A stretch of DNA of 64,000 nt, taken from a virus. Below, piece by piece: positions 1 to 64,000 of the stretch; position 1 is the stretch's first letter, and every line of letters starts with the position of its first letter. The position numbers and the translations under genes are program-made. The notes beneath the pieces are model-generated. The model saw only the letters and a program-made list of their open reading frames with translations, was not told where the DNA came from and made no database searches. The stretch is taken from the IMG/VR virus record IMGVR_UViG_3300042295_000443, positions 25,162 to 89,161 of that record. One strand, given 5' to 3'.

Positions 1-907
1 TACCTTGTGTTTTTTTATCAAGTTTAATTCCTCCTAAGTCACCTACTGAAAGTGTATTATATACATTATCAGTATATTTTTTTGCAGCATTCTGTTGCTT
101 TTCTTTTTTTGTTTCTTGTTCAGCTAGTTGTCTTGCAACAATTTCTTCTTGCATTCTATCTAACTTAGGTTTAAACTGATTAGCTTTTTGCTCCAGTCTT
201 CCCATATCTCCCCATTCTTCTATTTCTGTTTCAATCTCTTCAGCTGTTCCAAAATTAGTAGCCCAAAGATATTGTCTTGCAATTTCTGCTTGATCATGTT
301 CATCAGCTGGATCCAGTTGAATCATTTCTTCTACTTGAGCCAGTGTTCTGAAAAGACCTTTTAAATCTTGTCCTCCATCTGCAACATACTTTGCTGCAAT
401 TTGAAGTTCTTCTGGTAAAGCATTAAAAAATTCTTTTGGAGTATTCTCTCTAATTTTATTTTCTCTTTCTTGAAAATTTGCTTCAAATAATTCTCTAAAG
501 TCTTTAGTAGTATATTCTTCTAATGGTTTATCATCATCAAATCCAACTAAAGAACCTTCTTCAATCATTTTTTGTGCTAGGTCAGCAAGACCTGATTTAT
601 CTACTTTAGGTCTTCCTTTACCTCCAGCATCTTCAGCTTGACTGATTAATCCATCAAGTTCAGCTATTGCTTCTTTTACTTCTGCATCTTCTTCTTTCTT
701 TTCAGAAAAGGAAGATTTGTCAAGGAACGTAGTGTCTACACTCTCCTTAGAGAACATAGTCTTTGGTTTTTCTTCTTCTTTACCATCTGATGGAAGCATT
801 ACACTTTCAGCACCTGGTATTCCAAATAATTCATCAATGTTTACATCTGCTTGTCCTACCGTTGTAGAATCCTGTATTTGAGTTTCCTCAATTTTGTCTT
901 TTTCCAT
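1..907 (-). CDS. Acidic scaffold-like/structural protein downstream of portal (3' end outside window)
   Basis: ATG at 907-905 (MEKDKIEETQ...), frame open to window edge; acidic/coiled-coil; position matches the crAss-like gene between portal and major capsid protein. Confidence 0.65.
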   Translation of the reverse strand, partial: MEKDKIEETQIQDSTTVGQADVNIDELFGIPGAESVMLPSDGKEEEKPKTMFSKESVDTTFLDKSSFSEKKEEDAEVKEAIAELDGLISQAEDAGGKGRPKVDKSGLADLAQKMIEEGSLVGFDDDKPLEEYTTKDFRELFEANFQERENKIRENTPKEFFNALPEELQIAAKYVADGGQDLKGLFRTLAQVEEMIQLDPADEHDQAEIARQYLWATNFGTAEEIETEIEEWGDMGRLEQKANQFKPKLDRMQEEIVARQLAEQETKKEKQQNAAKKYTDNVYNTLSVGDLGGIKLDKKTQG

Positions 908-934
908 TACTTTGGTTTTTGTTGGTTGTTAATG

Positions 935-945
935 TAATATACTAA
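935..945 (-). promoter_or_regulatory. Late promoter motif TT(A/T)GTATATT(A/TG) (representative copy)
   Basis: Also at 8621, 11445, 12897, 14413, 17248, 34383; related CAAAT(A/G)TA at 15633, 17972, 35093; always just upstream of minus-strand starts; resembles Bacteroidota -7 box TAnnTTTG. Confidence 0.7.
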
Positions 946-1002
946 TTAAATTTTAAAAATTTAAAATAAAAAAACTTTTTTTAGCAGTATATGGCTAAAG
1001 GT

Positions 1003-17331: not shown

Positions 17332-17964
17332 TTATTCGTTATCATAAAACATTCTTTCTGAATCTTCTGTTTGCCACTTTTCAAATCCTTCGCAGTTATA
17401 CCATTCATTACATACTAAGTAATCTGGTTTCTCTGGGAAAGCTTTAGTTACAAATGAAGGTTCAGACCATTTAATTCTGTTGTTAGGTTGTAAAGCTATC
17501 TGACCATTCTCAAGTAAAATGATATGATGACTTTTATGTTCTTTAGGATCTTCAGCTAATGTAAGATCTGTGTTAAGATCATTTGATCCCCAGTTAATAG
17601 TTCCATGGTAATTACCTTTGTAAAATTTATGGTCTTTCATATATACTTCTACAGGAGTATCATAGAGGTAAGACAAACTCATAACAGTAAAGTTATAAGA
17701 GAAGCAATTCCATAACTGTAAAAAATGAAATGGTAGATCTGGATCTGGTGTCTCTGGTTCAGTCAATAAAGCATGACTTGGTAACTTATCTCTAAGAGCT
17801 CCATTCTCTAAAAGTACCTGGAATAATGCTGCTTGCCCCGGCATACATCTTACTGATACTATTATCCCTGGAGTAAACTCTCCTTGACCTTTAGTGTGTT
17901 GGTACATGTATTCATTTCTTACAAATACTTTAAGAGGAAAGAAGTTATGTTCTATGTGTGCCAT
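17332..17964 (-). CDS. Conserved phage hypothetical protein (track start 18015; likely start MAHIEHN)
   Basis: LQLWNCFSY, EHKSHHI, ALQPNNRI; TACATTTG promoter motif just upstream. Confidence 0.65.
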   Translation of the reverse strand: MAHIEHNFFPLKVFVRNEYMYQHTKGQGEFTPGIIVSVRCMPGQAALFQVLLENGALRDKLPSHALLTEPETPDPDLPFHFLQLWNCFSYNFTVMSLSYLYDTPVEVYMKDHKFYKGNYHGTINWGSNDLNTDLTLAEDPKEHKSHHIILLENGQIALQPNNRIKWSEPSFVTKAFPEKPDYLVCNEWYNCEGFEKWQTEDSERMFYDNE

Positions 17965-18076
17965 AATAAATAAGTTTGTCACAAATGTATAAATATTTAT
18001 AATACTATAAAGCATAATATAGTTTACAAAACTATACTATTTTGTAACTTATATGTTACATTATGCATGCATATTC

Positions 18077-18160
18077 TGGAAAAATTCATGCAGGTTATAT
18101 ACTTATAGTGGAAAATTCCCATCACTAAAACGGTTATAATCCTGTTATGGTGGAAAATTC
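18077..18160. repeat. Three TGGAAAA(A)TTC repeats in divergent intergenic region
   Basis: 18077-18087, 18109-18118, 18151-18160; last two preceded by GGTTATA...TTATRG. Confidence 0.6.
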
Positions 18161-18464
18161 TTACACAAAGTTATATGGTTTTTTAGTATGTGAGATGTAG
18201 AGGTTGGGTGCTATGATACAACCCCCCGCCAAATCCTGTGGAGGTGGTACCCCCCACCAACTTGAGGAGTGTGTCATAAATTCTAGGAAATATTTTAGAA
18301 AAAAATCCTGCTGGGAAAGAAACCTAGCTGCTACAACAGGAGAGGAGAGACAAGAGGTGACATGCTATGTCTACTACATGTACTATGCTAGTGATGTGCT
18401 AGCAAGAGGAGGGAGGCAGGGTGCTATATAATAGGGGTGTGTACTATATGTATAATATAGTATA

Positions 18465-18499
18465 GCCTTCGGCAGATTATATAACAGCTTATAACTACT
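18465..18499 (+). promoter_or_regulatory. Early repeat element 1 (candidate virion-RNAP promoter)
   Basis: GCCTTCGGCAG-N8-ACAGCTT-ATA-ACTACT. Confidence 0.7.
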
Positions 18500-18523
18500 A
18501 TGGAACCAACTAAACTTTGTATC

Positions 18524-18592
18524 ATGATTGTATATGCTGTAATAAACGGAGTAGTTACTGTTAAGGAATGGGTGTTAAATCCTAATGCTTAA
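18524..18592 (+). CDS. 22-aa peptide MIVYAVINGVVTVKEWVLNPNA
   Basis: Between repeat 1 and hairpin 18598-18620; AACCAACTAAACT leader like that of ORF 22104. Confidence 0.5.
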   Translation: MIVYAVINGVVTVKEWVLNPNA

Positions 18593-18632
18593 TGTTTGAG
18601 GGAGCTGTAATAGCTCTCTTAACTATGCTTAA

Positions 18633-18667
18633 GCCTTCGGCAGATGGTACTACAGCTTATAACTGCT
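18633..18667 (+). promoter_or_regulatory. Early repeat element 2
   Basis: GCCTTCGGCAG-N8-ACAGCTT-ATA-ACTGCT. Confidence 0.7.
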
Positions 18668-18708
18668 AAGGATATATTATATTTATTAACCATCTAAAAC
18701 TTAAAAAG

Positions 18709-18975
18709 ATGAGCAATGTTAAAGGATTCTTAATCAGTGTAAGTGACACTGTAAAAACAAACACTAATGGAACTGAATTCAGATCTTGCATAGTAGCCAT
18801 TGAGGGTGAAAACTATTTTGCAAAAATCTGGGAGAAATCTGTTTCCAAAGCTGTTGTTGGCAATGAGTACACTGTTGAAATGATTGTTGATGGTGAAAAC
18901 TTATGGTTAACATTGTTAACTGGTGTTACTGCAACTATTGCAACACCTAATATGCTTGCACACCTACTTAAATAA
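18709..18975 (+). CDS. Small beta-rich (OB-fold-like) early protein, paralogue A
   Basis: About 55/88 identical to 19806-20081 by hand alignment. Confidence 0.8.
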   Translation: MSNVKGFLISVSDTVKTNTNGTEFRSCIVAIEGENYFAKIWEKSVSKAVVGNEYTVEMIVDGENLWLTLLTGVTATIATPNMLAHLLK

Positions 18976-18982
18976 TAGGTAG

Positions 18983-19013
18983 AAGATGACACCCTTAATT
19001 GGGTGTTATCTTT
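18983..19013 (+). terminator. Intrinsic terminator
   Basis: AAGATGACACCC/GGGTGTTATCTT stem. Confidence 0.65.
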
Positions 19014-19021
19014 ATAGTTAA

Positions 19022-19056
19022 GCCTTCGGCAGGAAATGCTACAACTTAAAACTACT
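19022..19056 (+). promoter_or_regulatory. Early repeat element 3
   Basis: GCCTTCGGCAG-N8-ACAACTT-AAA-ACTACT. Confidence 0.7.
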
Positions 19057-19089
19057 CATAGTATTAATGTTAAATTTAAACTATATATC

Positions 19090-19293
19090 ATGGACACAAC
19101 AACTGTATTACAAATTATTGCTATGCTTGAAGGTGATGCAAAATCATACATTAAACACCTTGATAATACTAATGACCCTTTTGAAACAGGGTACATTAAA
19201 GGTTATCATGATGCTTTAACAAAGCATGCCCACATGCTGCAAGAGTATATTGAACTGCAAGTAAATTATGCAGAGAATGCATTAGGGGAGTAA
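19090..19293 (+). CDS. 67-aa early protein (start revised from 19036)
   Basis: The track ATG at 19036 lies within repeat 3; ATG 19090 has an A-rich leader. Confidence 0.65.
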   Translation: MDTTTVLQIIAMLEGDAKSYIKHLDNTNDPFETGYIKGYHDALTKHAHMLQEYIELQVNYAENALGE

Positions 19294-19304
19294 TCCCCTT
19301 TTTT
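19284..19304 (+). terminator. Terminator AGGGGA-GTAA-TCCCCT-T
   Basis: Stop codon sits in the loop; same hairpin at 20968-20986. Confidence 0.75.
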
Positions 19305-19330
19305 AAACTGTAATCCCTAAATTAAAATAT

Positions 19331-19435
19331 ATGTTAATAGTTATTGGAAATGTAATGTTTGTTGCTATAATAGTGTTTATTGCCCGTTGTGGCTACAAGC
19401 TAGAAAAGGCTGATGAAGAAAAGGAAAGGGCTTAG
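19331..19435 (+). CDS. 34-aa single-TM peptide
   Basis: MLIVIGNVMFVAIIVFIARCGYKLEKADEEKERA, followed by hairpin and U-tract. Confidence 0.55.
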   Translation: MLIVIGNVMFVAIIVFIARCGYKLEKADEEKERA

Positions 19436-19511
19436 GCTCTTTCTTTTTTTGCTCAATCATTCATTCTTATGGAGTGGCTTGCGCCACACCTTTTATGTCT
19501 TTCTTTCAATG

Positions 19512-19546
19512 GCCTTCGGCAGGAGTCTCTACAGCTTAGGACTTCT
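19512..19546 (+). promoter_or_regulatory. Early repeat element 4
   Basis: GCCTTCGGCAG-N8-ACAGCTT-AGG-ACTTCT. Confidence 0.7.
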
Positions 19547-19650
19547 GTGGAGTGTGCCTTTGCCTATGAGGATAAGATGTTACACACTTATAAAGTTCTC
19601 TCTGAAAAAGAACTTGGACAACTACATAGTAATATGTGGTTGTTTTTTTT
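19547..19650 (+). ncRNA. Candidate ~100-nt small RNA
   Basis: AGTGTG/CACACT and AAGTTCT/AGAACTT stems then terminator 19618-19650; no credible ORF inside. Confidence 0.45.
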
Positions 19651-19716
19651 GGTAGTTCAATGCTTGGCAGCTGCATAGTAAGTACTGTGTAGCAAAACTA
19701 ATTTATTCTAGATTGG

Positions 19717-19751
19717 GCCTCCGGCAGGTGCCTTTACAGCTTTCTACTGCT
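19717..19751 (+). promoter_or_regulatory. Early repeat element 5
   Basis: GCCTCCGGCAG-N8-ACAGCTT-TCT-ACTGCT. Confidence 0.7.
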
Positions 19752-19805
19752 GTGGATATAAGATTGTGAGAAAGCCTCACAACAAAACCAACCCCTATTT
19801 GCAAA

Positions 19806-20081
19806 ATGGAGAAAATGTTAAGAGGTACTCTTATCAGTTTTTCTAATGAGGCAAAAGCCAATGTGAATGGTACTCAGTACCGTTCTTGCATTGTCAATAT
19901 TGGAGGTGAAAATTACTTTGCAAAGCTTTGGGAGAAATCCTTGGCTAAGGCAGTAATTGGAACTGAGTACAATATTGAGGCTGTAGTAGATGGTGATAAC
20001 TTGTGGTTAACGTGCCTTACGGGCGTTAGTGCAACTATTGCTACTCCTGCTACATTCGCTGCTTTGTTAGCAGAATTGTAG
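19806..20081 (+). CDS. Small beta-rich (OB-fold-like) early protein, paralogue B
   Basis: Paralogue of 18709-18975. Confidence 0.8.
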   Translation: MEKMLRGTLISFSNEAKANVNGTQYRSCIVNIGGENYFAKLWEKSLAKAVIGTEYNIEAVVDGDNLWLTCLTGVSATIATPATFAALLAEL

Positions 20082-20145
20082 GAAGTATCCTAGACTGAGT
20101 AAGACTCGGAGTGTACCACTACTTGGCAACAGAAGTGGAAAATAT

Positions 20146-20185
20146 TAATGAACTACATAGAAATATGTGGTTCATTACTTTTTTT
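20146..20185 (+). terminator. Intrinsic terminator
   Basis: TAATGAACTACATA-GAAA-TATGTGGTTCATTA then T7. Confidence 0.8.
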
Positions 20186-20190
20186 AAACA

Positions 20191-20217
20191 GCCTTTGGCA
20201 GAAAGAGTATACAAAAT
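20191..20217 (+). promoter_or_regulatory. Degenerate early repeat element 6
   Basis: GCCTTTGGCAG-N9-ACAAAAT; downstream boxes decayed. Confidence 0.45.
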
Positions 20218-20289
20218 AAAAGATAATATTTGCCTTGGCAAGTACTAATAGGTACTGTGTAGCAAATAGTCTATATATATACTTAACCG

Positions 20290-20325
20290 GCCTCCGGCAG
20301 GTGGGGCGTACAGCTTTCAACTTCT
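20290..20325 (+). promoter_or_regulatory. Early repeat element 7
   Basis: GCCTCCGGCAG-N9-ACAGCTT-TCA-ACTTCT. Confidence 0.7.
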
Positions 20326-20680
20326 TTGAGTGTGGTTAGGCCACGGTCATCTAGACCTACTAACCACCTATGTAACTATTAAAACTAGATTATTATAACA
20401 AAGTCTCCAGCCTGTGCAACAATGTGACTTTGGTACTGATAATCAGGTAGTTATAAAATGAGATATGTGAGAAAAAGAGGAAGAATGAGATTAACTATTA
20501 ACCTATCCAAGAATTTATAGGCAGAAATAGTCAGCAGAAATGGTCTTAAAGCCTAATATTATATAGTATATAGCTAAAACAGACTTAGTATATACATTAA
20601 GAATAGTATTATCTCTTTCTATAGTTAGAGTAACATAATAACTTATTCCGGAATTAAATAAATTTAAAACTATATATACT

Positions 20681-20977
20681 ATGAAAGATTTCATTCACAC
20701 AGGTTGGTGGGGACCTACATTAACTACCACTGAAGATCCTGAATTAAAAGTTATTGAAAGAGATAATGGTCATTCTTGGACTATGAACTTTTATGTTGGT
20801 CATCATTTAATTGATTGCATAAATATGGAATGGTGCCGTGGTACTAAACTAGACAAAGATGTTCTTAGACTTCCTGTGTATAGTGATGAAGGTATCTACT
20901 TAGGTAGTCTTGCTAAAAGATTAGAAGATGCAATTAATGTTATGCATCCAGAACCTATGTTTCATACAGGGGAGTAA
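20681..20977 (+). CDS. Early hypothetical protein
   Basis: 98 aa, A-rich leader, stop inside terminator loop. Confidence 0.7.
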   Translation: MKDFIHTGWWGPTLTTTEDPELKVIERDNGHSWTMNFYVGHHLIDCINMEWCRGTKLDKDVLRLPVYSDEGIYLGSLAKRLEDAINVMHPEPMFHTGE

Positions 20978-20994
20978 TCCCCTTTTATTTAGTA

Positions 20995-21908
20995 TTGTTG
21001 CCTTTTCTTTAACCAGGCAAGTATCCAGTAAGTTGCTGGCGTGGGACTGTCCAGTATAGTTACAAGACAGTAGGGTTTGGTCTATTTCCCTTAAAGACCA
21101 TTAAGTACACAATGTTGTTACCCTCAGAGTTTAGATACTCATGGTGTGTGCGTTAAACCTATTATAACGGTTACTAAAACAACAGGTCAGCTCTCGTGAC
21201 CAAAGGATAAACCAGTAATGGTATAAAGTGATATGTTGGTAACATATTGCGCAGGAGTAATCCTGTCTACAGAAGAGTATTGTAACTACCTACATTTTGG
21301 TGTGCTTGTGGCCTAACGGTTGATGCATAGAGATGTAGACTTTCTAACAGGTAGGAAGTTGAGACAGAAATGTCAATAGAAAGTGCAATAGGTAACAATA
21401 GTACATCTCGCCAAGATGGAAGTTGTTATTAGTGAGATGTTCTTTATGCTACTAGAAATAGTGTGTATTTACATCAAACAGTGAGTAAGCTTGGCCGCTT
21501 AAAGCAATGTGAAGTTATAACTAAGGTACTCAAAAGGTATTATGTTATATAAAGTTGGAACTACTTCACATTATTTCCTGAACCGCATTTAAACTAAAAA
21601 CTTAAAAGCAAAGAATGTTCTAGCACTTATTAGTGAAAATGCTCTTATCCTACTGCAATATGTAGGTACAGAAGACCCGCAAGGTTTATGTAAAGGGACT
21701 GATTAATATCTTAACTAGCAGTAGACATACTGTGTATCCCGTAAGGAAGTTGGTATGAAAGGAAACTTATTGCACTAATATGTAAAAGTATGATGATACT
21801 ATAAATCATTGAGCATGTTGTTTACTTATAGAAATATAAGTGTGTATGAGGAGAAGAAATTTTCCAAAAATAGCAACATGAAAGGTCAATACTCATCCTT
21901 TCAATAGT
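20995..21908 (+). ncRNA. Large structured non-coding RNA region (one or more RNAs)
   Basis: No ORF; many stems, several with GAAA/GTAA/GCAA loops, an AGUA/GAA loop-E hairpin at 21391-21430, possible pseudoknots. Confidence 0.7.
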
Positions 21909-22076
21909 AATGCACCATTTCTACTTCACAAGGGTAGACAGTTGTAATGTATGAACGCAACACTACTAGATTTTATCACTAGAAAGATGTTACATAGGGT
22001 TTTAATTAAAGAAGACTGATAATCTTTTTTATAACCTGCCGGAAACTTACATTATAACTGAGTGCAGAGTGATATT
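21903..22076 (+). ncRNA. Twister ribozyme (variant, long P5 insertion), copy 1
   Basis: P1 AATA/TATT, G-T^AA, P2 TGCA/TGCA, P4 TCTAC/GTAGA, loop TTCACAAGG, pseudoknots TCAC/GTGA and CC/GG, conserved GA; predicted cut 21908/21909. Confidence 0.75.
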
Positions 22077-22103
22077 AAATAGTAACCAACTAAACTATAA
22101 TAT

Positions 22104-22256
22104 ATGATTTTTCAATTGATTGCTCAAATTATTAAAGATGCTGATAAAGTATCAAACAAGAAATTAGATAAAGCTGCTTATGCAGATTATCTCAATACTC
22201 TTTCTCTAGATGATCTACTATTCCTTAAGGATAGTTATAGTTCAGAGTTAGTATAG
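22104..22256 (+). CDS. 50-aa ORF between the two ribozymes (not in track)
   Basis: MIFQLIAQIIKDADKVSNKKLDKAAYADYLNTLSLDDLLFLKDSYSSELV, A-rich leader. Confidence 0.65.
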   Translation: MIFQLIAQIIKDADKVSNKKLDKAAYADYLNTLSLDDLLFLKDSYSSELV

Positions 22257-22289
22257 TACTTATTCCTGCAAGATTAATTTCTTGTGGGA

Positions 22290-22415
22290 TTAGTAATACA
22301 CCACTTCTCATTCCCAAGGTGAGACAGTTGTAATAGTAAGAGAGCAGGTTGCTTAGTCACACCTGCGGTAAATAATACTAAATCTTACACATTACAACTG
22401 AGTACAGAGGGATAA
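22290..22415 (+). ncRNA. Twister ribozyme (variant), copy 2
   Basis: P4 TCTCA/TGAGA, loop TTCCCAAGG, pseudoknot TCCC/GGGA covarying with copy 1; P2 TACA/TACA has two A.C mismatches; predicted cut 22294/22295. Confidence 0.65.
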
Positions 22416-22532
22416 CAAGGGTCATAACCTTGGGGCATAACTAAGAGCTAGTAAGAAGACATAGAGTTCATTTTATTATGAAAGATACAACTCTTATTAG
22501 AACAACTCTTAGTTAATGCTTTATAAATATGT

Positions 22533-22772
22533 ATGAAATATATACAATTTATAATTGAAAGTAATTCTAATAAGAAATTAGATGCTTTCACTAAAGAATG
22601 TATTAATGCCATCAGAAGATCTGGTGCTGTTAAAGCTGGTCCAATACCTTTTAAAGGTAAAAGATTATTTTATTGTTACAGTCCTAATGGAAAGACTATT
22701 GATAGACTTATGTCATTAAAATGTCCTAAAGGTGTGTTAGTAACAATAAATTCTTTGGAAAATCCTCAATAA
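22533..22772 (+). CDS. Ribosomal protein uS10/NusE homologue lacking the extended loop
   Basis: RRSGAVKAGPIP..KRLF...PNGKTIDRLMSLKCPKGVLVTI aligns to S10 KRTGAQVRGPIP...RLVDI..[22 protein letters not shown]. Confidence 0.8.
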   Translation: MKYIQFIIESNSNKKLDAFTKECINAIRRSGAVKAGPIPFKGKRLFYCYSPNGKTIDRLMSLKCPKGVLVTINSLENPQ

Positions 22773-25156: not shown

Positions 25157-25300
25157 TATATTCTGAGAATATGCTTTTCCAAAATAACAGGGGAATATAA
25201 TGTTCCCCTTTTATTGTTTTAGCTATATACTGCAATATTTTATTTTCTACAAGCAATCATACATAAAATTATCACGTATTTTTACTACAGATATAAAAAC

Positions 25301-51285: not shown

Positions 51286-51324
51286 AAGGGAGATTAGCAG
51301 AAATGCTTTTCTCCCTTTTTTTTT
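51286..51324 (+). terminator. Terminator at convergence of replication and virion modules
   Basis: AAGGGAGA..AGCA-GAAA-TGCT..TCTCCCTT plus T-run. Confidence 0.8.
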
Positions 51325-57228: not shown

Positions 57229-60200
57229 TTACTGACAATCAAGTGATGTTCTTTCTATTCCTGGTAAACCTTCTGGAGAATTAAGATTATTTTCAGCTTC
57301 ATATTGTTCTCTATCACGCATTGCTTCAGATAAATCTTCAAAAGATGCTGACTCATTATAAGCTCTTATACTCTCTTGTTGTTCACTTTCTTCTTGAAGT
57401 ATATTACTTGCTATTGCAAATGCTTGATTATATGCTGAACTACCTTTATTTAAGCCAAGAGCATTTAATATAGCATCTATTATTTCTTCAAATAAGTTCT
57501 TATAATTTTTAACATCAGCAGGTGCTAATTCTTTAAGTTGAGTAATAAATTTAGCATCTGTAAACAAAGCTACAAAAAATTCATCAATTGTATAATTAGC
57601 ATAAGGTCCAGTTAAGTCTTTTGTATTAAATTTTCCTAGCTGATTAATGCTATGATCATATAATTTTTGAAAGTCTTTATTAAATTCATTATTTTTTCTT
57701 AGTGCTTTATAAGATAGAGCATGTAAAATTTCATGAAGTAATAAAGTCTCACTTTGACCATTTCTTACATTTGCAAATTCTGCAATAGAAATATTATTAT
57801 TATAATTATCATAAAACCCTCTACTTAAAAAGTTAGGATTATTATTAAAACCAACTTGTTCTTTTAATAAAACATCTACATCATTTATATTAGCAAATGA
57901 TTTTAAATGTTTAGCTAATGTATTTAGTGGATGATTTGATTCACCTATAGCATTTAATAATACTGATACCTTTACTATCTCTGAATCTTTAAAATACTTT
58001 TCTCTTATGTTTACATCAGGCTTATTACCAGATATAACATTTTCTTGAATACTAGATGGTAATTGAGTAACAACTTTAGCTGGTGTTTTAGGCATTCCAG
58101 GTTCTAAATTTTTAACTCTTCTTAAAGTAATAGATATTCTATAACTTCCTTTTTCATAATTTTTTCCATCTATTTCTGTAGTTATTGCAGGTAAAAATCC
58201 ATCTTGCTTTGATGGAAAAGTTCTATGCATTACTTTTCTATTTTGTCCATTTAAACCAAAAATATATGAATCTCCAGCATTAAGAGGAGTTGGTTCATAT
58301 TTACCAGTTTGTTGAACACTAAAATTACCACTACCACCTATATTAAGAACAAGAACAGGATAACCAATAGCATCAGCAGCTTCATCTACATCATTATGAG
58401 CACTTATAAAAGTTTCATCCTTATAAAGATTTATTATAGCTCCATCATAATCAGTAGCATCTATACCAGTAGCTTTAGACATTAATGTTTTAATTCTAGG
58501 ATTAATAGGACCTAATGGTTGACCATTAATAGATACTTCATAATAACCATACTTAGCACTACTTCCAGGTACAATAATATTTTTTATTTCAATAGCTTTA
58601 TAATTAGGATTATTTGATTTATAATCCCATCTTAAACCTAATCCAATCATTACATTTGCACTAGTAGCTTTATTAGTTGTAGCTCCTTGTTTTTCAATAT
58701 AAGGTTTAAGAATATTAAATAACTCAAGTTGTTCTTCTTTAGTTATAACATTTCTTTTAATTTCAACACCTGGAATTACCACTTCTGTTTCAACACTAGT
58801 AGATGGTTGAGTAATAGATTTACTAATCAATCCTGTTTTATTAGCATTTAGCTCTGTAACTAATCCATATCTACTTAACAATTCATTTTGTAACCATTCT
58901 GCAAATCTTGTTGGTATTTTAGCTAAATCAGAGGCAAATCCTTGAGGAAATATTTTAGTTTCATACTTATCTATTTTAGCAAATTGTTCTAAATTTACTT
59001 TTTTAAATAACTCAAAATCAGCTTCTGTATCTTGAAAATCTTGATTCCACCCCCCAGTTATTTTTGAAGTAGCTCTATCTTCTTCATATACATAATACTT
59101 TTTAGTTACTATACCTATTGCATTTGGATTATTTCTAATAACTGCACTTCCTCCACCAACTCTTGAAGAGCCTATAGAATTTATATTTTCAGTAAATATG
59201 TAAGCAGTGTTAGGATTTTCTTTTGGCGAATCTTTAGTCCAATTGTTTTTAACTATTGAAGATTTACTATTAACACTAGTAGATGGTTGAATAGGTTTAT
59301 TAACTAAATTTTTCTTTAATAAAGCTAACACAGATGAATCAAGATCTTCAACATTAACTACAGGTACTTCTGGTGTTTCAACAACTGGGGCTTTTTTAAA
59401 CTCTGTTGCTTTAGGAGCTACATAATTCTTAATTTTTTTATTAAGAGGATTTGTAAGTAAATTAAAAATTGTATTTAAAGTATTCACATCTAGTACCTTT
59501 TCCTCAAATATTACAGATGCTGTTTGCATAACATTGAGATAATCATCATAAGGTAATGCTTCATTAAATCCTAAAGCACTGTATCCTATACCATGTTGAT
59601 AGATCATCATTAGAGGTAGTTGAGCAAATAACTTACTAATCCTTGCATTATCTTCAGTATTTGAAGATTTCTTAATAGTGCTATCTGCTAGGTCAAGTAA
59701 ATTTTGATAATATATTTCTGCAAGTTGCCCGTCCTTAAGCATTTTAACATCATTTAATGTTAATACAAAATTTTGAACAATTTCAACTTTAGGAGCACCA
59801 AATGCTTCTTCTCCAGTTTTAGCAAAAACTTTTGTTATTGTTAAAGGTTTACTAAATTGAGAAATAATTGGATATTTATTTTTTAGTTGTGGAAACTCTT
59901 GTATGATATTCATAACCATATCTGTATATGAATTATTTTCAATACCACTTATAGCTTGTCCATTATATGCATTAAGAAGAGCTTGCTGATTTGTATATTC
60001 CTCATATGCTAATTTAGATACCTGATTTTCAGGAACTCCTTCATTACTTAAAATACTTTTTATTTTTAAATAATCTTTATTAGTTTTTAAAGAATCAATA
60101 GGGAATGCATTTCTCTGATATTCTCTTTCAAATACATATCTTACATAAGAAGATTCATTAGGGAACATATTGTCCTCAGTATCAAATCCTTTTAAACCTG

Positions 60201-63200
60201 TATTATTATAGGCACTTGTTGTTGTATTAGTATTTAAATAAACTTTATCAGCATAATCTTTTTTTAATTTTGCTTCATCAACAAATATAGTATCACCAAC
60301 TACTTGTGCACCTCTTATAACTTTATCTTTTTGTTTAACTTTTAAATTGTTAAACTCAGATGGCATATTTGTTAACTCACCATTCTCATCTATAAAGTGA
60401 GACATGTAGTTTTGAAATATGTAATTAGGAATTGCATTTTTAAATTGTGTAATAAATTGACTTACACCATCTTGTCCTTTTCCAAATCTATCAGTTATAA
60501 GATTAGGATGTGTTTCTATTTTTTGAAGAATATAATTAGTCACCCTATCATTATTTCTTAATTGAAATAAAGGAATTATTAGATCTTTAATTAATTGGTT
60601 ATCAAAAAAGCTACCTAATATAGAATCTTGCATAGCTTCAACTAAACCATCATCTAATTTTGAAAGTTCTTTAGCATCTTCTAGTGATACATTTCTTCTA
60701 ACTATTTCTTGAATAGTTTTAGAAGTTTTAGTATCTGGATTACTTAATGATTTAAGAGTACTAAATCCTTTAGAAGATTTTTCAAGTTCTAGAACATGTA
60801 AGAAAACTGCAAGAGCTTTAGGAGAAGTTGAATCACCAGTCATGACAATATCTTCTAATTCTTTTAAACTAAATTCTTTTATACCTTTAGTAGCTGCTTT
60901 TGCTGTATAATAAAAATTTGCATTAGATACAGCAAATTCACCAATTTGTATAAAGACTCCAGTAGCTGGTAGTTTTCCTTGTTTAGGATAATTTACAGAA
61001 TAAAGTTGTTTTATATCAATAGTACCTTTAGAAAGATCATTAAGTAGCTTTTGCTTTGTAGTTGGTACTTTTTCTAAATCAAATACTTCTATAGCCTTAC
61101 CATTTCTATCAGTTCCTGGTTTAGTTCCTATAATAATATTTATCTCAATATCTTCTCCATAAGGAGTTTTTTTATTTAAAGCATCTTTAAGTTTTAAAAG
61201 ATTAGCTTCAGGCATAATCTTCTCTAAATTTTGTTTAATACTAGATTGATATAGACTTGATTCAAAAATAGATTTATAATTTAGTACATTATTTGCTGCA
61301 GTATATTTTGCAAATGCAATATTATAATCTTTATCAATTAATCCAGTAACTGGAGCATAAGCACTTTTTATAAATCTTTGTTGTTCAGCATATGCTCTTA
61401 CTAATGGTTGTGATACCATCATTATAGCTTCCATTCTAGGAACACCTGCTTTAAATAAGAAAAGTAACATTGGAACAAGTTCTAAATTTCCTTGTATAAA
61501 AAATATCCAAGCATCTTTTTCAGCATCTAGGGCACCATTTAAACTTTGAGAAAATAATTCTGAAATTTCATCCATTCCATCTGCACTATAAATACTTGAT
61601 AAAGATATTTTACCATCTTTAGTTTTATTGTGTGGAACTAATAGTCTTACATCATAATCAATATCTCCTTCAATTAATTTTCCAGCTTTATTATAACTTG
61701 ATTCTTTATAAGTTAAAGGCATTGTTGCACCAACTGAATTAAATATTGGATTTAATGCATTCTCTAGAGCTATAATACCTAATACTTTTTTAGCAACCAT
61801 GTTTTCATCATGCTTGGCCATATTGTATTCTACTTCTAATGTATTTGTTGGACTAATGCCTTGACTAGTAGCTCCTGTAAATTGTTTCTTTAAATTATCA
61901 GCAATTTCTTTTAATAAATATGTATCATTAGGTCTTATTAGGCTTACAAAATTATCTTCTAGTTCTAGAATACCTCTTATTGTAGTAATTAAATTATTTT
62001 CAGAAGCAGCTTTTTGTGATTTAATTAAATTAAAGACATCTTTTTTTCCATCTTTTGTTTTATTTAATCTAGCTACTTCAGCTTCTAAAGCTTCAGTAGA
62101 TATTCCTCCTTTAACAAAATTGCCATCTTTATCAATATGTGGTAAAAATGTAGTTAATTTATCAATGTCAAAGTCAGCTCCTGATTTAGCAACTATTTCT
62201 GTTGGAAGAATTATAATACCTCCAGCAGAAGGATCTAAAAACTCATATACTTCCATGAATTCCATAGAGTTAACTCCTTGTACTGGTATTCTAACACCAG
62301 TAAGAGTTACTGCTTTTCTGTTATCATCTTTATTTAACCATTCTTCATCTTTAATAAGTTCATTAAGTCTTTGTCTTGTTCCTATAGGTTCTCCATTTGT
62401 ATCTTTTAATTTTAAAAGATTTAAAAAGTCTCCTTGTAAAGAAATAGCAACTTTCATTGCAGATGTATTACTAACTAATTTTACTTTTGGTTTTTTACCA
62501 GCAAGTACAGCTTCTAAATAATCAGTTTCAACTCTTAAGTTGTATCTATTTCTAGCAGTATAGTAGTTTGCTTGATCTACTAGTATACCTTTATTTATTT
62601 TAAGTAATTCAGCAAGTTTTTCTTTAGTGTAGTCTTTATATTTAACATCAAGATCTGTAGACTCTTCACTAAAGAAAGGTAAATTATTTGTACCAATGTA
62701 TTTTTTTTGGTCTGCTAAAGTAGCATTTCTGAATCTTGTTTGTGAATCCCAAATTCCATTAGTCATAGAACTTGCTACTTGAACAAAAGCTTCACCTTTT
62801 ATATTTTGTTTAATTAATCTTTTTTCTACAAGAGAAACAAGAATCTTTTCTATCTCATCTGCTTTTAAGTGTAATGATAAATCAGTCTTAAGTGACTTGT
62901 CTCTATTGAGACCAACCATTTGAATTAGATGTTCTGGTAACTCTCTTTTTTCAAGTTCATCTTGAACAACATTTAAAAACTGATTAATGTTACCTGTATA
63001 CTTTTTAGTTTTAGGATCATATGTATATCCTATTTCATTAAGTAATTCAAGTTTAAGTACAGCACTGTGATGATCTACAGCAAGTTCATATGCTCTAATA
63101 GCTTCTCCATTCTTCTCTTCATTAATTATTTTGCCATTCTCATACATACCGTTAAGAATTAACTTTCTTAACTGAGTAGGAAATATTGTTTTATTTTTAA

Positions 63201-64000
63201 ATTTAGTTGGGACAGCTGTAACATTTTTTAAATACTCTACATAAATAACATTAGGTGTAAATTTAATGTCTGCCTTTAAAGTTTTATTATCAGTATTTTT
63301 TTCATAGATTTCATCTGCTACTGCTTCACCTTTTTCATTTACTTCAGATGTAACACTACCTACTTTAGAACCAGATTGAAAAGTAACATACTGAATATTC
63401 TTATTCATCATTTGCTCATGCAAAGATTGAAGATCAGAATTTTGAATCATACTTGGTATAAGAGGCATAAGTGAAAACTTATGCATTGCATTTACAGGTA
63501 ATCCTGTACCAGATAAGTGACCAAAATTTTGTAATTTATATGCTGGAAAGAACTCTGTTATATCTGCAACAGATACTTCAGTACCATTTATTATTTTTTG
63601 AAATAAAACTTCTTGAGCATTAGACCAATTATTTTCATTTGTTTTTAATAACCTATAGCCATCTAGTGTGATCCATCCTTGACCATCACCTTCTTCCATA
63701 TCTATATACTTGGAAACTTCTTGGTCTACTCTAGTTTTTACAGCAGCAGCAACTTGACCTTTAGGTAAAACTTTATTAAATCTTTTAGTATAATCTTTTG
63801 TTAAAGCATTTTCTATTTCTTCAAGATATAAGGATGTTCTCTTTACTTCTTGTATAATAGCTGTATTAAGTTTTCCATCATAATTAATAGTAGGGAAACC
63901 ATTCTTTGTTGCAGCATAAGATGTATTTGCTAAATATCCATTACTAAAATTTTGAGCAGCAATATCTGTTCTTATTGATCTACCTCCAGATGTTAATCCT
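57229..64000 (-). CDS. Virion RNA polymerase polyprotein (5' end outside window) with macro-like, AlkB and zincin domains
   Basis: Frame stays open from 63699 to 64000; RIP..G motif, GADFDIDK at 62161-62175 (DFDID as in phi14:2 gp66); HND/H/RxxxxxR; HEILH. Confidence 0.88.
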   Translation of the reverse strand, partial: GLTSGGRSIRTDIAAQNFSNGYLANTSYAATKNGFPTINYDGKLNTAIIQEVKRTSLYLEEIENALTKDYTKRFNKVLPKGQVAAAVKTRVDQEVSKYIDMEEGDGQGWITLDGYRLLKTNENNWSNAQEVLFQKIINGTEVSVADITEFFPAYKLQNFGHLSGTGLPVNAMHKFSLMPLIPSMIQNSDLQSLHEQMMNKNIQYVTFQSGSKVGSVTSEVNEKGEAVADEIYEKNTDNKTLKADIKFTPNVIYVEYLKNVTAVPTKFKNKTIFPTQLRKLILNGMYENGKIINEEKNGEAIRAYELAVDHHSAVLKLELLNEIGYTYDPKTKKYTGNINQFLNVVQDELEKRELPEHLIQMVGLNRDKSLKTDLSLHLKADEIEKILVSLVEKRLIKQNIKGEAFVQVASSMTNGIWDSQTRFRNATLADQKKYIGTNNLPFFSEESTDLDVKYKDYTKEKLAELLKINKGILVDQANYYTARNRYNLRVETDYLEAVLAGKKPKVKLVSNTSAMKVAISLQGDFLNLLKLKDTNGEPIGTRQRLNELIKDEEWLNKDDNRKAVTLTGVRIPVQGVNSMEFMEVYEFLDPSAGGIIILPTEIVAKSGADFDIDKLTTFLPHIDKDGNFVKGGISTEALEAEVARLNKTKDGKKDVFNLIKSQKAASENNLITTIRGILELEDNFVSLIRPNDTYLLKEIADNLKKQFTGATSQGISPTNTLEVEYNMAKHDENMVAKKVLGIIALENALNPIFNSVGATMPLTYKESSYNKAGKLIEGDIDYDVRLLVPHNKTKDGKISLSSIYSADGMDEISELFSQSLNGALDAEKDAWIFFIQGNLELVPMLLFLFKAGVPRMEAIMMVSQPLVRAYAEQQRFIKSAYAPVTGLIDKDYNIAFAKYTAANNVLNYKSIFESSLYQSSIKQNLEKIMPEANLLKLKDALNKKTPYGEDIEINIIIGTKPGTDRNGKAIEVFDLEKVPTTKQKLLNDLSKGTIDIKQLYSVNYPKQGKLPATGVFIQIGEFAVSNANFYYTAKAATKGIKEFSLKELEDIVMTGDSTSPKALAVFLHVLELEKSSKGFSTLKSLSNPDTKTSKTIQEIVRRNVSLEDAKELSKLDDGLVEAMQDSILGSFFDNQLIKDLIIPLFQLRNNDRVTNYILQKIETHPNLITDRFGKGQDGVSQFITQFKNAIPNYIFQNYMSHFIDENGELTNMPSEFNNLKVKQKDKVIRGAQVVGDTIFVDEAKLKKDYADKVYLNTNTTTSAYNNTGLKGFDTEDNMFPNESSYVRYVFEREYQRNAFPIDSLKTNKDYLKIKSILSNEGVPENQVSKLAYEEYTNQQALLNAYNGQAISGIENNSYTDMVMNIIQEFPQLKNKYPIISQFSKPLTITKVFAKTGEEAFGAPKVEIVQNFVLTLNDVKMLKDGQLAEIYYQNLLDLADSTIKKSSNTEDNARISKLFAQLPLMMIYQHGIGYSALGFNEALPYDDYLNVMQTASVIFEEKVLDVNTLNTIFNLLTNPLNKKIKNYVAPKATEFKKAPVVETPEVPVVNVEDLDSSVLALLKKNLVNKPIQPSTSVNSKSSIVKNNWTKDSPKENPNTAYIFTENINSIGSSRVGGGSAVIRNNPNAIGIVTKKYYVYEEDRATSKITGGWNQDFQDTEADFELFKKVNLEQFAKIDKYETKIFPQGFASDLAKIPTRFAEWLQNELLSRYGLVTELNANKTGLISKSITQPSTSVETEVVIPGVEIKRNVITKEEQLELFNILKPYIEKQGATTNKATSANVMIGLGLRWDYKSNNPNYKAIEIKNIIVPGSSAKYGYYEVSINGQPLGPINPRIKTLMSKATGIDATDYDGAIINLYKDETFISAHNDVDEAADAIGYPVLVLNIGGSGNFSVQQTGKYEPTPLNAGDSYIFGLNGQNRKVMHRTFPSKQDGFLPAITTEIDGKNYEKGSYRISITLRRVKNLEPGMPKTPAKVVTQLPSSIQENVISGNKPDVNIREKYFKDSEIVKVSVLLNAIGESNHPLNTLAKHLKSFANINDVDVLLKEQVGFNNNPNFLSRGFYDNYNNNISIAEFANVRNGQSETLLLHEILHALSYKALRKNNEFNKDFQKLYDHSINQLGKFNTKDLTGPYANYTIDEFFVALFTDAKFITQLKELAPADVKNYKNLFEEIIDAILNALGLNKGSSAYNQAFAIASNILQEESEQQESIRAYNESASFEDLSEAMRDREQYEAENNLNSPEGLPGIERTSLDCQ
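58792..59290. repeat. Perfect 19-bp direct repeat AACACTAGTAGATGGTTGA (QPSTSV linker)
   Basis: Copies at 58792-58810 and 59272-59290; degenerate third copy ~58048-58068 (TQLPSSI). Confidence 0.85.

Follow-up and report, generated by a model that had tools for sequence, protein, structure and literature searches.

At the opening of the plus-strand replication-gene arm, an uncultured lake-water crAss-like phage carries six copies of a composite repeat. The overall explanation that we favor, at a probability of roughly 0.5, is that these elements are early promoters defined by a conserved core, read by the virion RNA polymerase and equipped with a DNA mini-hairpin as an accessory. The parts of this explanation differ in strength. 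The repeats very probably function as promoters; if they do, the injected two-barrel virion RNA polymerase is their probable reader. For the hairpin forming on the template strand and taking part in initiation, we put the chances at about even. The analysis was centered on a stretch of 64,000 nt (the window), positions 25,162 to 89,161 of IMG/VR record IMGVR_UViG_3300042295_000443; coordinates below are those of the window. The first-pass annotation of this DNA had proposed hairpin promoters for the virion polymerase. The promoter behavior and the probable reading by that enzyme stand, whereas the hairpin as an N4-style determinant does not.

The repeat array and its cassettes

We searched for GCCTYCGGCAG allowing at most one mismatch and obtained seven matches in the window, all on the plus strand. 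Six are exact copies (at 18465, 18633, 19022, 19512, 19717 and 20290), and the seventh, GCCTTTGGCAG at 20191, is a decayed one. Shuffled sequences gave an expectation of 0.04 matches, and seven were reached in none of 100 shuffles. Extra copies are absent from the whole 89,161-bp contig (completeness about 75%), so that the series originally noticed comprises the sole copies in the genome. The second part of the element, ACARCTT-N3-ACTNCT, starts 8 nt past the exact copy in five cases and 9 nt past the one at 20290. Elsewhere in the genome it has only two matches (at most one mismatch), both on the minus strand and distant from the array. The parts had thus been recognized as they are, but the element had been described too short: the full core is T-ACAGCTT-N3-ACT-N2-T (18 nt), often with (A/G)TGGA next to it. 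On the template strand GCCTTCGGC and GCCTCCGGC read, as reverse complements, GCCGAAGGC and GCCGGAGGC, in agreement with the GCC-GAA-GGC and GCC-GGA-GGC given previously. The copy with an AAA loop had been said to have lost the downstream boxes as well, and indeed both are missing at 20191; two close relatives (L001 and L008) show the identical decay.

The gene arms diverge at the array, and the GC skew flips its sign there. The plus-strand arm opened by the array ends with a DNA polymerase (48026-49924). The elements, their cassettes and the candidate reader are as follows.

18465..18504, plus strand: P1, the first element of the plus-strand arm; GCC-TTC-GGC (18465-18473), AG, 8-nt spacer, ACAGCTT (18484-18490), ATA, ACTACT (18494-18499), ATGGA
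18633..18672, plus strand: P2; GCC-TTC-GGC, spacer of 8, ACAGCTT (18652-18658), ACTGCT; heads an 88-aa ORF (18709-18975)
19022..19061, plus strand: P3; GCC-TTC-GGC, spacer of 8, ACAACTT (19041-19047), ACTACT; its unit has a small ORF (probable start 19091, stop 19293) and a terminator (19284-19299)
19512..19551, plus strand: P4; GCC-TTC-GGC, spacer of 8, ACAGCTT (19531-19537), ACTTCT; its unit, of about 100 nt, has no gene
19546..19652, plus strand: candidate small RNA of P4; three hairpins, of which the third is the terminator (19616-19645) with a T run
19717..19756, plus strand: P5; GCC-TCC-GGC, spacer of 8, ACAGCTT (19736-19742), ACTGCT, GTGGA; its unit has a 91-aa ORF (19806-20081), a paralogue of the P2 gene (repeat D1, 71% identity), and a terminator (20146-20177)
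20191..20226, plus strand: decayed copy; GCC-TTT-GGC, template loop AAA, downstream boxes gone
20290..20330, plus strand: P6; GCC-TCC-GGC, spacer of 9, ACAGCTT (20310-20316), ACTTCT; its unit has an ORF-free leader of about 350 nt, a 98-aa ORF (20681-20977) and a terminator (20968-20983)
57232..63999, minus strand: giant ORF with DFDID, open at the contig end; homologue of crAss-type virion RNA polymerases and candidate reader

The elements are separated by gaps of 168-573 bp. Nearly all of them had been placed just after a terminator, which holds in part. The terminator scan places one before P4 (19474-19487), P5 (19616-19645, 72 nt upstream) and P6 (20146-20177, 113 nt upstream); the weaker hairpins upstream of P2 and P3 were recognized by eye, and P1 has no plus-strand gene upstream. 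The promoter-like behavior suggested earlier is borne out by a single orientation, a position at the head of terminator-ended cassettes and confinement to the start of the replication arm. The layout is that of PeSL arrays, an early promoter-like signal and a terminator around small, swappable genes, although the signal is not of their sigma-70-like type.

The region downstream of P4 is a candidate small RNA. Its predicted RNA fold (19546..19652) has an energy of -29.7 kcal/mol (z = -3.2), equaled by none of 200 shuffles. This small-RNA unit and a GOLLD-like RNA are located within or behind the array; Rfam at gathering thresholds and a tRNA scan returned nothing. An S10/NusE-like ORF (PF00338, 25.6 bits) lies just downstream of the array. 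As assembled contigs, 21 freshwater, lake or sediment metatranscriptome runs cover 5-20% of the region. Contigs from four RNA libraries comprise pieces within cassettes and others that span P5 and P6. The P4 cassette is skipped in contigs of two RNA libraries, X2 (19421->19645, with 16 other letters substituted) and X4 (19443->19644).

The core in related phages and its candidate reader

A DNA similarity search against deposited phages gave zero matches, and relatives sought through the 88-aa early protein amounted to one near-identical locus only. The ACAGCTT box is a family-wide core in related lake phages, with 4-15 copies per genome on a single strand within about 2.5 kb. Family cores mostly follow terminators (in many cases 8-20 nt upstream) and stand 22-26 nt ahead of small ORFs; for the cores without a hairpin that have a following ORF, the ATG is 22-26 nt past ACT in 32 of 50. 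In four related records (84-115 kb), ACAGCTYNNNACT is present in 6, 10, 5 and 2 copies on one strand, spanning about 2.5 kb, with two additional stray matches on the opposite strand elsewhere. Its reversed control has 0 matches in the related records, and the fifth record (G005, 121 kb) is without an exact match, showing just the variant ACAGCTTTTRATT, twice in L052. Besides ACAGCTT-N3-ACT there are thus clade-specific core variants, ACAGCTCAWAACT and ACAGCTTTTRATT. When IMG/VR was scanned with the core alone, the matches listed were mostly single chance ones, and several per contig occurred among them only in this clade. Neither the core nor the mini-hairpin is present in the early region of phi14:2 or at the early end of crAss001, and we therefore rejected generality across Crassvirales. 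With its compact (18 nt), invariant makeup the core is closer to the promoters of phage polymerases than to those of sigma-70 or Bacteroidota sigma-A.

The giant minus-strand ORF had been taken for the phage RNA polymerase. Its homology to the virion RNA polymerase of phi14:2 is genuine: a profile of the ORF region and four relatives matches PDB 6VR4 (phi14:2 gp66) with an E-value of 9.7e-22, GADFDVDK being aligned to GSDFDIDK. The DFDID motif is at residue 608 of the open frame, and tblastn of the ORF gives weak matches to Crassvirales. Homologues of 2,700-4,740 aa are encoded in all five related records. Sigma70_r2 was found neither in the window genome nor in the five relatives, and Sigma70_r4_2 was not found in the window genome. 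A search of the six genomes for a T7-like polymerase (PF00940), run without a positive control, gave no match.

It is unlikely, in our view, that the elements are instead promoters recognized by the RNA polymerase of the host, be it with the main sigma factor or with an alternative one, arranged as a PeSL-like array with the hairpin box at the -35/UP position. If transcription started just past the core, the hairpin center would indeed fall at about -33. The T4-type PeSL arrays combine the same cassette logic and module shuffling with sigma-70-like promoters (PMC2839356), and the skipping of the P4 cassette in the X2 and X4 contigs fits such shuffling. The S10/NusE-like ORF would suit antitermination by a host-type polymerase. 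However, the core looks like neither of the consensuses assumed for the host, TTGACA/TATAAT or TTTG/TAnnTTTG. A scan for TTGACA-N17-TATAAT gave 60 sigma-70-like sites, and not one of them coincides with or overlaps a copy; the Bacteroidota pattern TTTG-N18-21-TAnnTTTG is unenriched, with one occurrence in the genome versus 3.1 in shuffles. The resemblance of GGCA...GC to sigma-54 promoters was rejected by inspection (GG-to-GC spacing of 15-16 nt, not 11). An invariant core of 18 nt is more like a phage-polymerase signal, and a -35 element would not be expected to have the covarying stems and strand-specific loop described below. Moreover, a better candidate for a host promoter exists in the same genomes: TTAGTATATT, a separate -10-like motif, lies scattered along the opposite (late) strand of each of the five genomes tested, which suggests two promoter specificities divided by module.

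The mini-hairpin

The hairpin is present at all six promoters of this phage and at all four of one relative (G004). It is missing from 71 of 100 non-redundant ACAGCTT cores of the relatives (about 70%) and therefore cannot be necessary for recognition. We also rejected the idea that every core uses some upstream hairpin, since about 29 of the 71 hairpin-less cores are without any perfect hairpin of at least 5 bp in the 80 nt upstream. Nor does the hairpin class mark non-coding units, as an ORF of at least 40 aa follows 71% of the hairpin-class and 74% of the other cores. The hairpin-to-core distance is 15-16 nt here and 13-18 nt, once 22, across the family. With such variable spacing and so many cores devoid of it, the hairpin does not hold up as a defining part of the signal.

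Where the hairpin does occur, its architecture is conserved. The window copies have stems of 3 bp, and those of the relatives measure 2-4 bp, with one of 6 bp; the variants are GCC/GGC, GTGC/GCAC, ACC/GGT, GC/GC, GCATGC/GCATGC and GCT/AGC, and one relative (L056) combines GTGC/GCAC and GCC/GGC stems in a single genome. The template strand of another (L034) reads exactly GCGAAGC. All six window copies have a template loop GNA closed by C-G. The 25 boxes of the GCC-NNN-GGC type have the loops TTC (13), TGC (5), TCC (3), TAC (3) and TAT (1), so that 24 of them carry T-N-C on the coding strand (template G-N-A) with a free middle base. The first-pass annotation had proposed to look in related genomes for such GNA conservation and for restriction of the motif; the loop is conserved to this extent, and the hairpin box is found nowhere outside the array regions of the related genomes. 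Upstream of the 100 non-redundant cores there are 45 GC-containing triloop hairpins; read on the coding strand, 28 are C(TNC)G and C(GNA)G is absent, while the downstream control region has four triloops of mixed kinds.

Changes of the stem tolerated without covariation had been named as evidence against a functional hairpin, and compensating changes were found. The third stem pair is intact in 27 of 28 sequences, with four double changes; its covariation score is 0.32 versus 0.07 in shuffles, a value matched by none of 500 shuffles, and slid controls stay at or below 0.09. The hairpin set was picked by a rule demanding two pairs and a T-N-C loop, with the third pair left unused, so that this pair and the strand asymmetry are the sole features free of selection bias. 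Generic nearest-neighbor DNA folding, in a model without a GNA term, gives a marginal -1.3 to -1.6 kcal/mol, equal on both strands, and a thermodynamic preference for the template strand was rejected on account of this equality. A vestigial terminator was rejected for the window copies, which have no T run, are accompanied by separate terminators before P4-P6 and, at P1, lack an upstream gene. We rejected an RNA UNCG tetraloop for GCC-UNC-GGC as well: it would contain a C-C mismatch and cannot form in GTGC-TTC-GCAC, GC-TTC-GC or ACC-TTC-GGT, all of which pair as triloops. Overall, the hairpin looks like a conserved structure, its stem changing by compensating substitutions around a T-N-C loop.

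A strict N4-style scheme, in which the template hairpin is the determinant and fixes the start site, with ACAGCTT as a conserved initial transcribed sequence, appears still less likely than host promoters. It would explain why every promoter here and in G004 has a hairpin, and it draws on the GNA loop, the covarying stems and the preference of gp66 for single-stranded DNA. The loop center, 15-16 nt before ACAGCTT in this phage, is near the 11-12 nt of N4, and one RNA-library piece extends to 19747, inside the ACTGCT of P5. This scheme conflicts with the 71 hairpin-less cores, which keep the same core and the same distance to ATG (about 29 of them with no nearby substitute stem), and with a hairpin-to-core distance ranging over 13-22 nt. 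In addition, the stems fall below the 5-7 bp of N4, and the polymerase belongs to a fold family different from that of the T7-like N4 enzyme. Least probable of all is a role other than that of promoters (early-regulator operators, single-strand priming signals of an origin at the strand switch, or RNA processing/stability elements): the array does lie at the arm divergence where the GC skew changes sign, RSF1010 and G4-type origin priming signals do contain CCGAAGG-type mini-hairpins and the GCC-N3-GGC box is palindromic in an operator-like way, but elements 168-573 bp apart, each between a terminator and a gene, are not iteron-like clusters, different stems coexist in L056, a symmetric dimer needs no strand-asymmetric loop, a 3-bp triloop is weak as RNA and its UNCG register misfits the variants on inspection, and the core keeps a fixed distance to start codons.

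Returning to core-defined promoters of the virion polymerase, each element would head a self-contained cassette made of the signal, a short leader, a small gene or small RNA and a terminator. The defining part of the promoter would be the 18-nt core common to the related phages, recognized by the injected two-barrel enzyme, and the GC mini-hairpin would be an optional accessory module upstream of it. The closing C-G pair, the T-N-C loop and the covarying stem agree with extrusion of a C(GNA)G mini-hairpin from the template strand; such a structure could assist an enzyme preferring single-stranded templates in opening or finding the promoter; extrusion of such a small cruciform from duplex DNA is an assumed step. 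As a tentative mechanism, the polymerase may find its first genes through the core, to which some lineages would add the supercoil-extruded hairpin as an opening or landing aid.

Relation to known systems

If the virion polymerase reads it, the core is a candidate for the first promoter consensus of Crassvirales virion polymerases. Of early-gene selection by an injected crAss-like polymerase, phi14:2 is the only studied case, and it offers ssDNA-dependent activity and no promoter motif. The lake crAss-like clade supplies a candidate signal that is sharply defined, short, repeated and testable, together with natural variants: hairpins present or absent, four loop bases, several stem versions and clade-specific cores. 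The same signal delimits swappable early cassettes, a help in annotating small RNAs and early genes of uncultured Crassvirales.

The background cited by the first-pass annotation (GNA mini-hairpin stability, GGA/GAA loops in N4, activity of gp66 on ssDNA) agrees with the literature (PMC13037366, PMC4496689, bioRxiv 10.1101/2020.03.07.982082). Like the GNA mini-hairpins (GCGNAGC; Hirao/Yoshizawa, reviewed in PMC13037366), the template GCC-GNA-GGC is fixed only at loop positions 1 and 3; the likeness is one of sequence. PeSL of T4-type phages have sigma-70-like promoters read by the host polymerase and a stem-loop that is a terminator, and they mediate module shuffling (PMC2839356, PMC4122927). 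The present array likewise consists of small cassettes, each with a conserved probable promoter at one end and a terminator at the other, that are gained or lost as a whole; here it is the P4 cassette that contigs of two RNA libraries lack. It differs in a signal that is not sigma-70-like and in having a GNA mini-hairpin besides the terminator.

The virion polymerase of phi14:2 transcribes the early rightward replication arm; gp66 transcribes ssDNA and requires single-stranded DNA in vitro, and a common motif upstream of the early transcripts was not detectable (bioRxiv 10.1101/2020.03.07.982082). Our phage has a homologous giant DFDID polymerase and, likewise, a rightward early replication arm with small ORFs and long non-coding RNAs at its head. 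Unlike our array, the early region of phi14:2 is without core or mini-hairpin, as is the early end of crAss001. As described in the part of the Thermus phage P23-45 study considered here, which mentions no hairpin element, AT-rich pre-early promoters are read by a tape-measure-fused two-barrel virion polymerase (bioRxiv 10.1101/2022.12.01.518664). To that extent P23-45 is a precedent for such a polymerase with a strongly conserved, phage-specific motif upstream of the first expressed genes. P23-45 differs in phage group, motif and host, and the assignment there came from TSS mapping and ChIP-seq.

Promoters of the N4 virion RNAP have GGA/GAA loops, and only G-N-A triloops give stable mini-hairpins (PMC13037366, PMC4496689). 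In N4 the stems are 5-7 bp long and the hairpin is essential and centered at -11/-12; here stems of 2-4 bp stand 13-18 nt ahead of a separate conserved core and are missing from most promoters of the family. The N4 enzyme is a T7-like single-subunit polymerase, in contrast to the two-barrel crAss-type enzyme. As with N4 P1-P3, the early region of a phage with an injected polymerase of its own begins with a few tandem promoters, probable ones in our case (PMC4496689, PMC13037366). The small GC hairpin with a GNA template loop is shared too (loops GGA/GAA in N4 and GAA/GGA in our phage, with each of the four middle bases occurring among the relatives), and in both systems the stem bases are free provided that pairing persists. 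Should the signal indeed be read by the virion polymerase, its GNA mini-hairpin would provide a second, independent instance of such an enzyme making use of a template-strand DNA hairpin, and a convergence with the unrelated enzyme of N4.

An array of promoter-like elements and its conserved core

The window contains six exact copies of GCCTYCGGCAG (P1 to P6, at 18465, 18633, 19022, 19512, 19717 and 20290) and a one-mismatch copy at 20191, all on the plus strand, where 0.04 hits are expected by chance; no further copy occurs anywhere in the whole contig. Each exact copy is followed by ACARCTT-N3-ACTNCT after a spacer of 8 nt (9 nt at 20290) whose sequence is not conserved. At 20191, the template loop reads AAA and the downstream boxes are lost. 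The seven tripartite repeats reported in the first-pass annotation, including the joint decay of loop and boxes in one copy, thus stand with small corrections. The copies head a series of cassettes.

Cassettes and terminators of the array
Plus strand: two cassettes, one with an 88-aa ORF headed by P2, the other with a 91-aa paralogue headed by P5 (repeat D1)
Plus strand: cassette with a small ORF ending at 19293, headed by a copy
Plus strand: gene-less unit of about 100 nt (P4) that folds well (z = -3.2) and has a terminator at its end
Plus strand: cassette with a long leader and then a 98-aa ORF, headed by a copy
19284, 19474, 19616, 20146 and 20968, plus strand: terminators (terminator scanner)

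The whole P4 cassette (promoter, small RNA and terminator) is absent from assembled contigs of two RNA libraries: the X2 contig skips from 19421 to 19645, with 16 other letters instead, and the X4 contig from 19443 to 19644.

Directly before P1 lies a G+C-richer, ORF-poor stretch (18200-18460, plus strand) with GGTGGTACCCCCC, which several relatives also carry directly upstream of their first core. The stretch is covered by contigs from three RNA libraries, ending at 18428, 18436 and 18468; a structured RNA or proximity to a genome end could explain it. Immediately upstream of P1 (18440-18464, plus strand), TATAATATAGTATA resembles the late-strand TAGTATA motif but is on the plus strand, and a host-type promoter may also fire into the early array.

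Many related lake phages were collected by scanning IMG/VR with a composite pattern and by fetching loci through a neighbouring ferredoxin-like gene. The element that recurs in them is the core T-ACAGCTT-N3-ACT-N2-T. Four related records of 84-115 kb contain 6, 10, 5 and 2 cores, clustered on a single strand in a stretch of about 2.5 kb, with two stray opposite-strand matches elsewhere. A fifth record (121 kb) has no exact core and carries the variant ACAGCTTTTRATT twice; a reversed control pattern gave zero matches. Most cores directly follow an ordinary terminator, whose stem ends 8-20 nt upstream, and 32 of the 50 hairpin-less cores having an ORF downstream show an ATG 22-26 nt past ACT. 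This terminator-core-ATG layout is the signature of a promoter plus leader module, and the six elements probably work as phage-specific early promoters.

The GC mini-hairpin, initially regarded as the defining promoter part, is present at only 29 of 100 non-redundant cores, and about 29 of the 71 hairpin-less ones have no perfect hairpin of at least 5 bp within 80 nt. The core is therefore autonomous and the hairpin an add-on. Its use varies with lineage: it accompanies all six promoters in the window phage and four of four in one related record (G004), while another (G002) has two hairpin-bearing promoters (one GCC-type box, one GTGC/GCAC variant) among about twelve cores.

The virion polymerase as candidate reader

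The source contig, of which the window is bases 25162-89161, is a single viral sequence of 89,161 bp (30% G+C, completeness rating about 75%) encoding a portal, a large terminase and a family-B DNA polymerase.

Features bearing on transcription
57232-63999, minus strand: giant ORF containing DFDID, open at the contig end
17257, 12906, 11454, 8631, 944 and the rest of the genome, minus strand: TTAGTATATT, intergenic, on the structural-gene strand

A profile of the giant-ORF region and four relatives matched phi14:2 gp66 (PDB 6VR4; E 9.7e-22) in collinear stretches, with GADFDVDK aligned to GSDFDIDK, in agreement with the original assignment of the ORF as a crAss-type virion RNA polymerase. Since tblastn gave only weak matches to Crassvirales and blastn no match to deposited phages, the phage is a distant, uncultured crAss-like one. 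Parts of the region occur in metatranscriptome runs from fresh water, lakes or sediment.

Behind the polymerase core, the C-terminal part of the ORF (58120-59253, minus strand) contains DUF7831 (E 2.6e-9) and a domain of the 2OG-Fe(II) oxygenase type (PF13532, E 7e-12); the fusion would place an AlkB-like enzyme in the virion polymerase polyprotein. The adjoining 1,958-aa protein (51323-57199, minus strand), with a LysM/transglycosylase-like segment at residues 1640-1726, is probably another ejected virion protein. An ORF is open at either end of the contig: a 1,056-aa minus-strand one at the start (genome positions 1-3169) and the polymerase ORF at the other end (82393-89161). Should the contig represent a permuted circle, the two may be parts of a single gene some 3,300 aa long, in agreement with the relatives' homologues of 2,700-4,740 aa; the frames of the two ORFs differ by 2 nt across the junction.

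There are several arguments for the injected virion polymerase as reader of the core. The core resembles neither sigma-70 nor Bacteroidota sigma-A promoters, and no sigma-70-like site overlaps any copy. It is compact and nearly invariant, and it occurs only within the first 2 kb of the replication arm. Sigma70_r2 was absent from the window genome and five relatives, and Sigma70_r4_2 from the window genome; a search for a T7-like polymerase, run without a positive control, was negative. A giant gp66 homologue is encoded in all five relatives searched, and the virion two-barrel polymerase of phage P23-45 likewise works with a conserved motif (bioRxiv 10.1101/2022.12.01.518664).

Another motif, TTAGTATATT, which includes a -10-like TATATT, is scattered with a strong bias to the opposite, structural-gene strand in five of five genomes tested (8 reverse versus 1 forward in the window phage; opposite to the early array in four relatives) and is a candidate host-type middle/late promoter. 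The strand split mirrors phi14:2, where early transcription of the rightward arm falls to the virion enzyme, and -35/-10-like middle and late promoters are read by the host enzyme (bioRxiv 10.1101/2020.03.07.982082).

Other observations count against the virion enzyme as reader. Early transcripts of phi14:2 share no motif (bioRxiv 10.1101/2020.03.07.982082), and both core and mini-hairpin are absent from the phi14:2 and crAss001 early regions. Very similar cassette arrays, the PeSLs (promoter-early stem-loops) of T4-type phages, are host sigma-70 promoters (PMC2839356). Just downstream of the array, a 79-aa ORF (22533-22772, plus strand) matches Ribosomal_S10 (PF00338; 25.6 bits versus a cut-off of 21.2, profile positions 4-43 only); it encodes a short S10/NusE-like protein of the early arm that could bear on antitermination, which would fit a host-type system.

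Start site and mini-hairpin

Conservation continues past the core as ACT-N2-T-A-T and then GGAT (hairpin class) or TAAT (other class), and the first helix of the predicted P4 small RNA starts 4 nt beyond the ACTTCT box. Both point to initiation immediately downstream of the core, with the hairpin centre near -33. Alternatively, an N4-like start may lie at ACAGCTT, which would put the hairpin at -15. Of the RNA-library contigs, one piece extends to 19747, within the P5 ACTGCT box, but others cross the entire promoter.

The mini-hairpin looks like a real structure. Pairing is kept across the stem variants GCC/GGC, TGCC/GGCA, GTGC/GCAC, ACC/GGT, GC/GC, GCATGC/GCATGC and GCT/AGC. The third stem pair, not forced by the box selection rule, is paired in 27 of 28 distinct aligned boxes with four double changes; its covariation score is 0.32 versus 0.07 in shuffles (0 of 500 reach 0.32) and at most 0.09 in slid controls. 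When GC-containing triloop hairpins upstream of the cores were counted without bias, 28 of 45 were C(TNC)G and none had a coding-strand GNA loop; a control region downstream holds just four triloops, which are of mixed kinds. Loops of GCC-type boxes are TTC (13), TGC (5), TCC (3), TAC (3) and TAT (1), so positions 1 and 3 are fixed (one TAT in 25) and the middle base is free. Both the loop conservation and the stem covariation expected by the first-pass annotation are thus seen in the relatives.

Read on the template strand, the loop pattern matches exactly the G-N-A rule of extraordinarily stable DNA mini-hairpins, and the classic GCGAAGC itself is present in one relative. Published work bears out this background: GNA alone among 64 triloops forms such mini-hairpins, and N4 virion-polymerase promoters have GGA/GAA loops (PMC13037366, PMC4496689). 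With generic DNA energy parameters the hairpin reaches only about -1.5 kcal/mol, whichever strand is folded, so the template-strand argument rests on the loop rule, not on energies. An RNA UNCG-tetraloop fails on register, and a symmetric operator leaves the loop asymmetry and the differing stems within one genome unexplained.

Downstream RNA elements and comparison with known systems

Within the ORF-free 20978-22103, positions 21507-21899 (plus strand) match Rfam GOLLD (RF02032) over its full length (model 1-416; E 1.4e-22; 88 bits, under the 150-bit gathering score), so that a GOLLD-like giant RNA follows closely on the early promoter array in this crAss-like lake phage. Our literature search found no paper naming GOLLD and crAss together. 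Two 44-nt repeats, 84% identical (21905-21948 and 22291-22334, plus strand), bracket a 50-aa ORF. A permissive Rfam search of 17900-22700 (E <= 1) gave no twister match.

Our literature search also found no paper defining a promoter for a Crassvirales virion polymerase; on that point the elements provide ready-made templates. In cassette architecture and turnover they are similar to PeSL arrays, in which entire cassettes are known to be gained and lost, as with the missing P4 cassette, but they differ in promoter type. With N4 promoters they share the template-strand GNA hairpin and its covariation; however, they differ in stem length, in whether the hairpin is essential, in its position and in polymerase family, which places them outside the N4 class.
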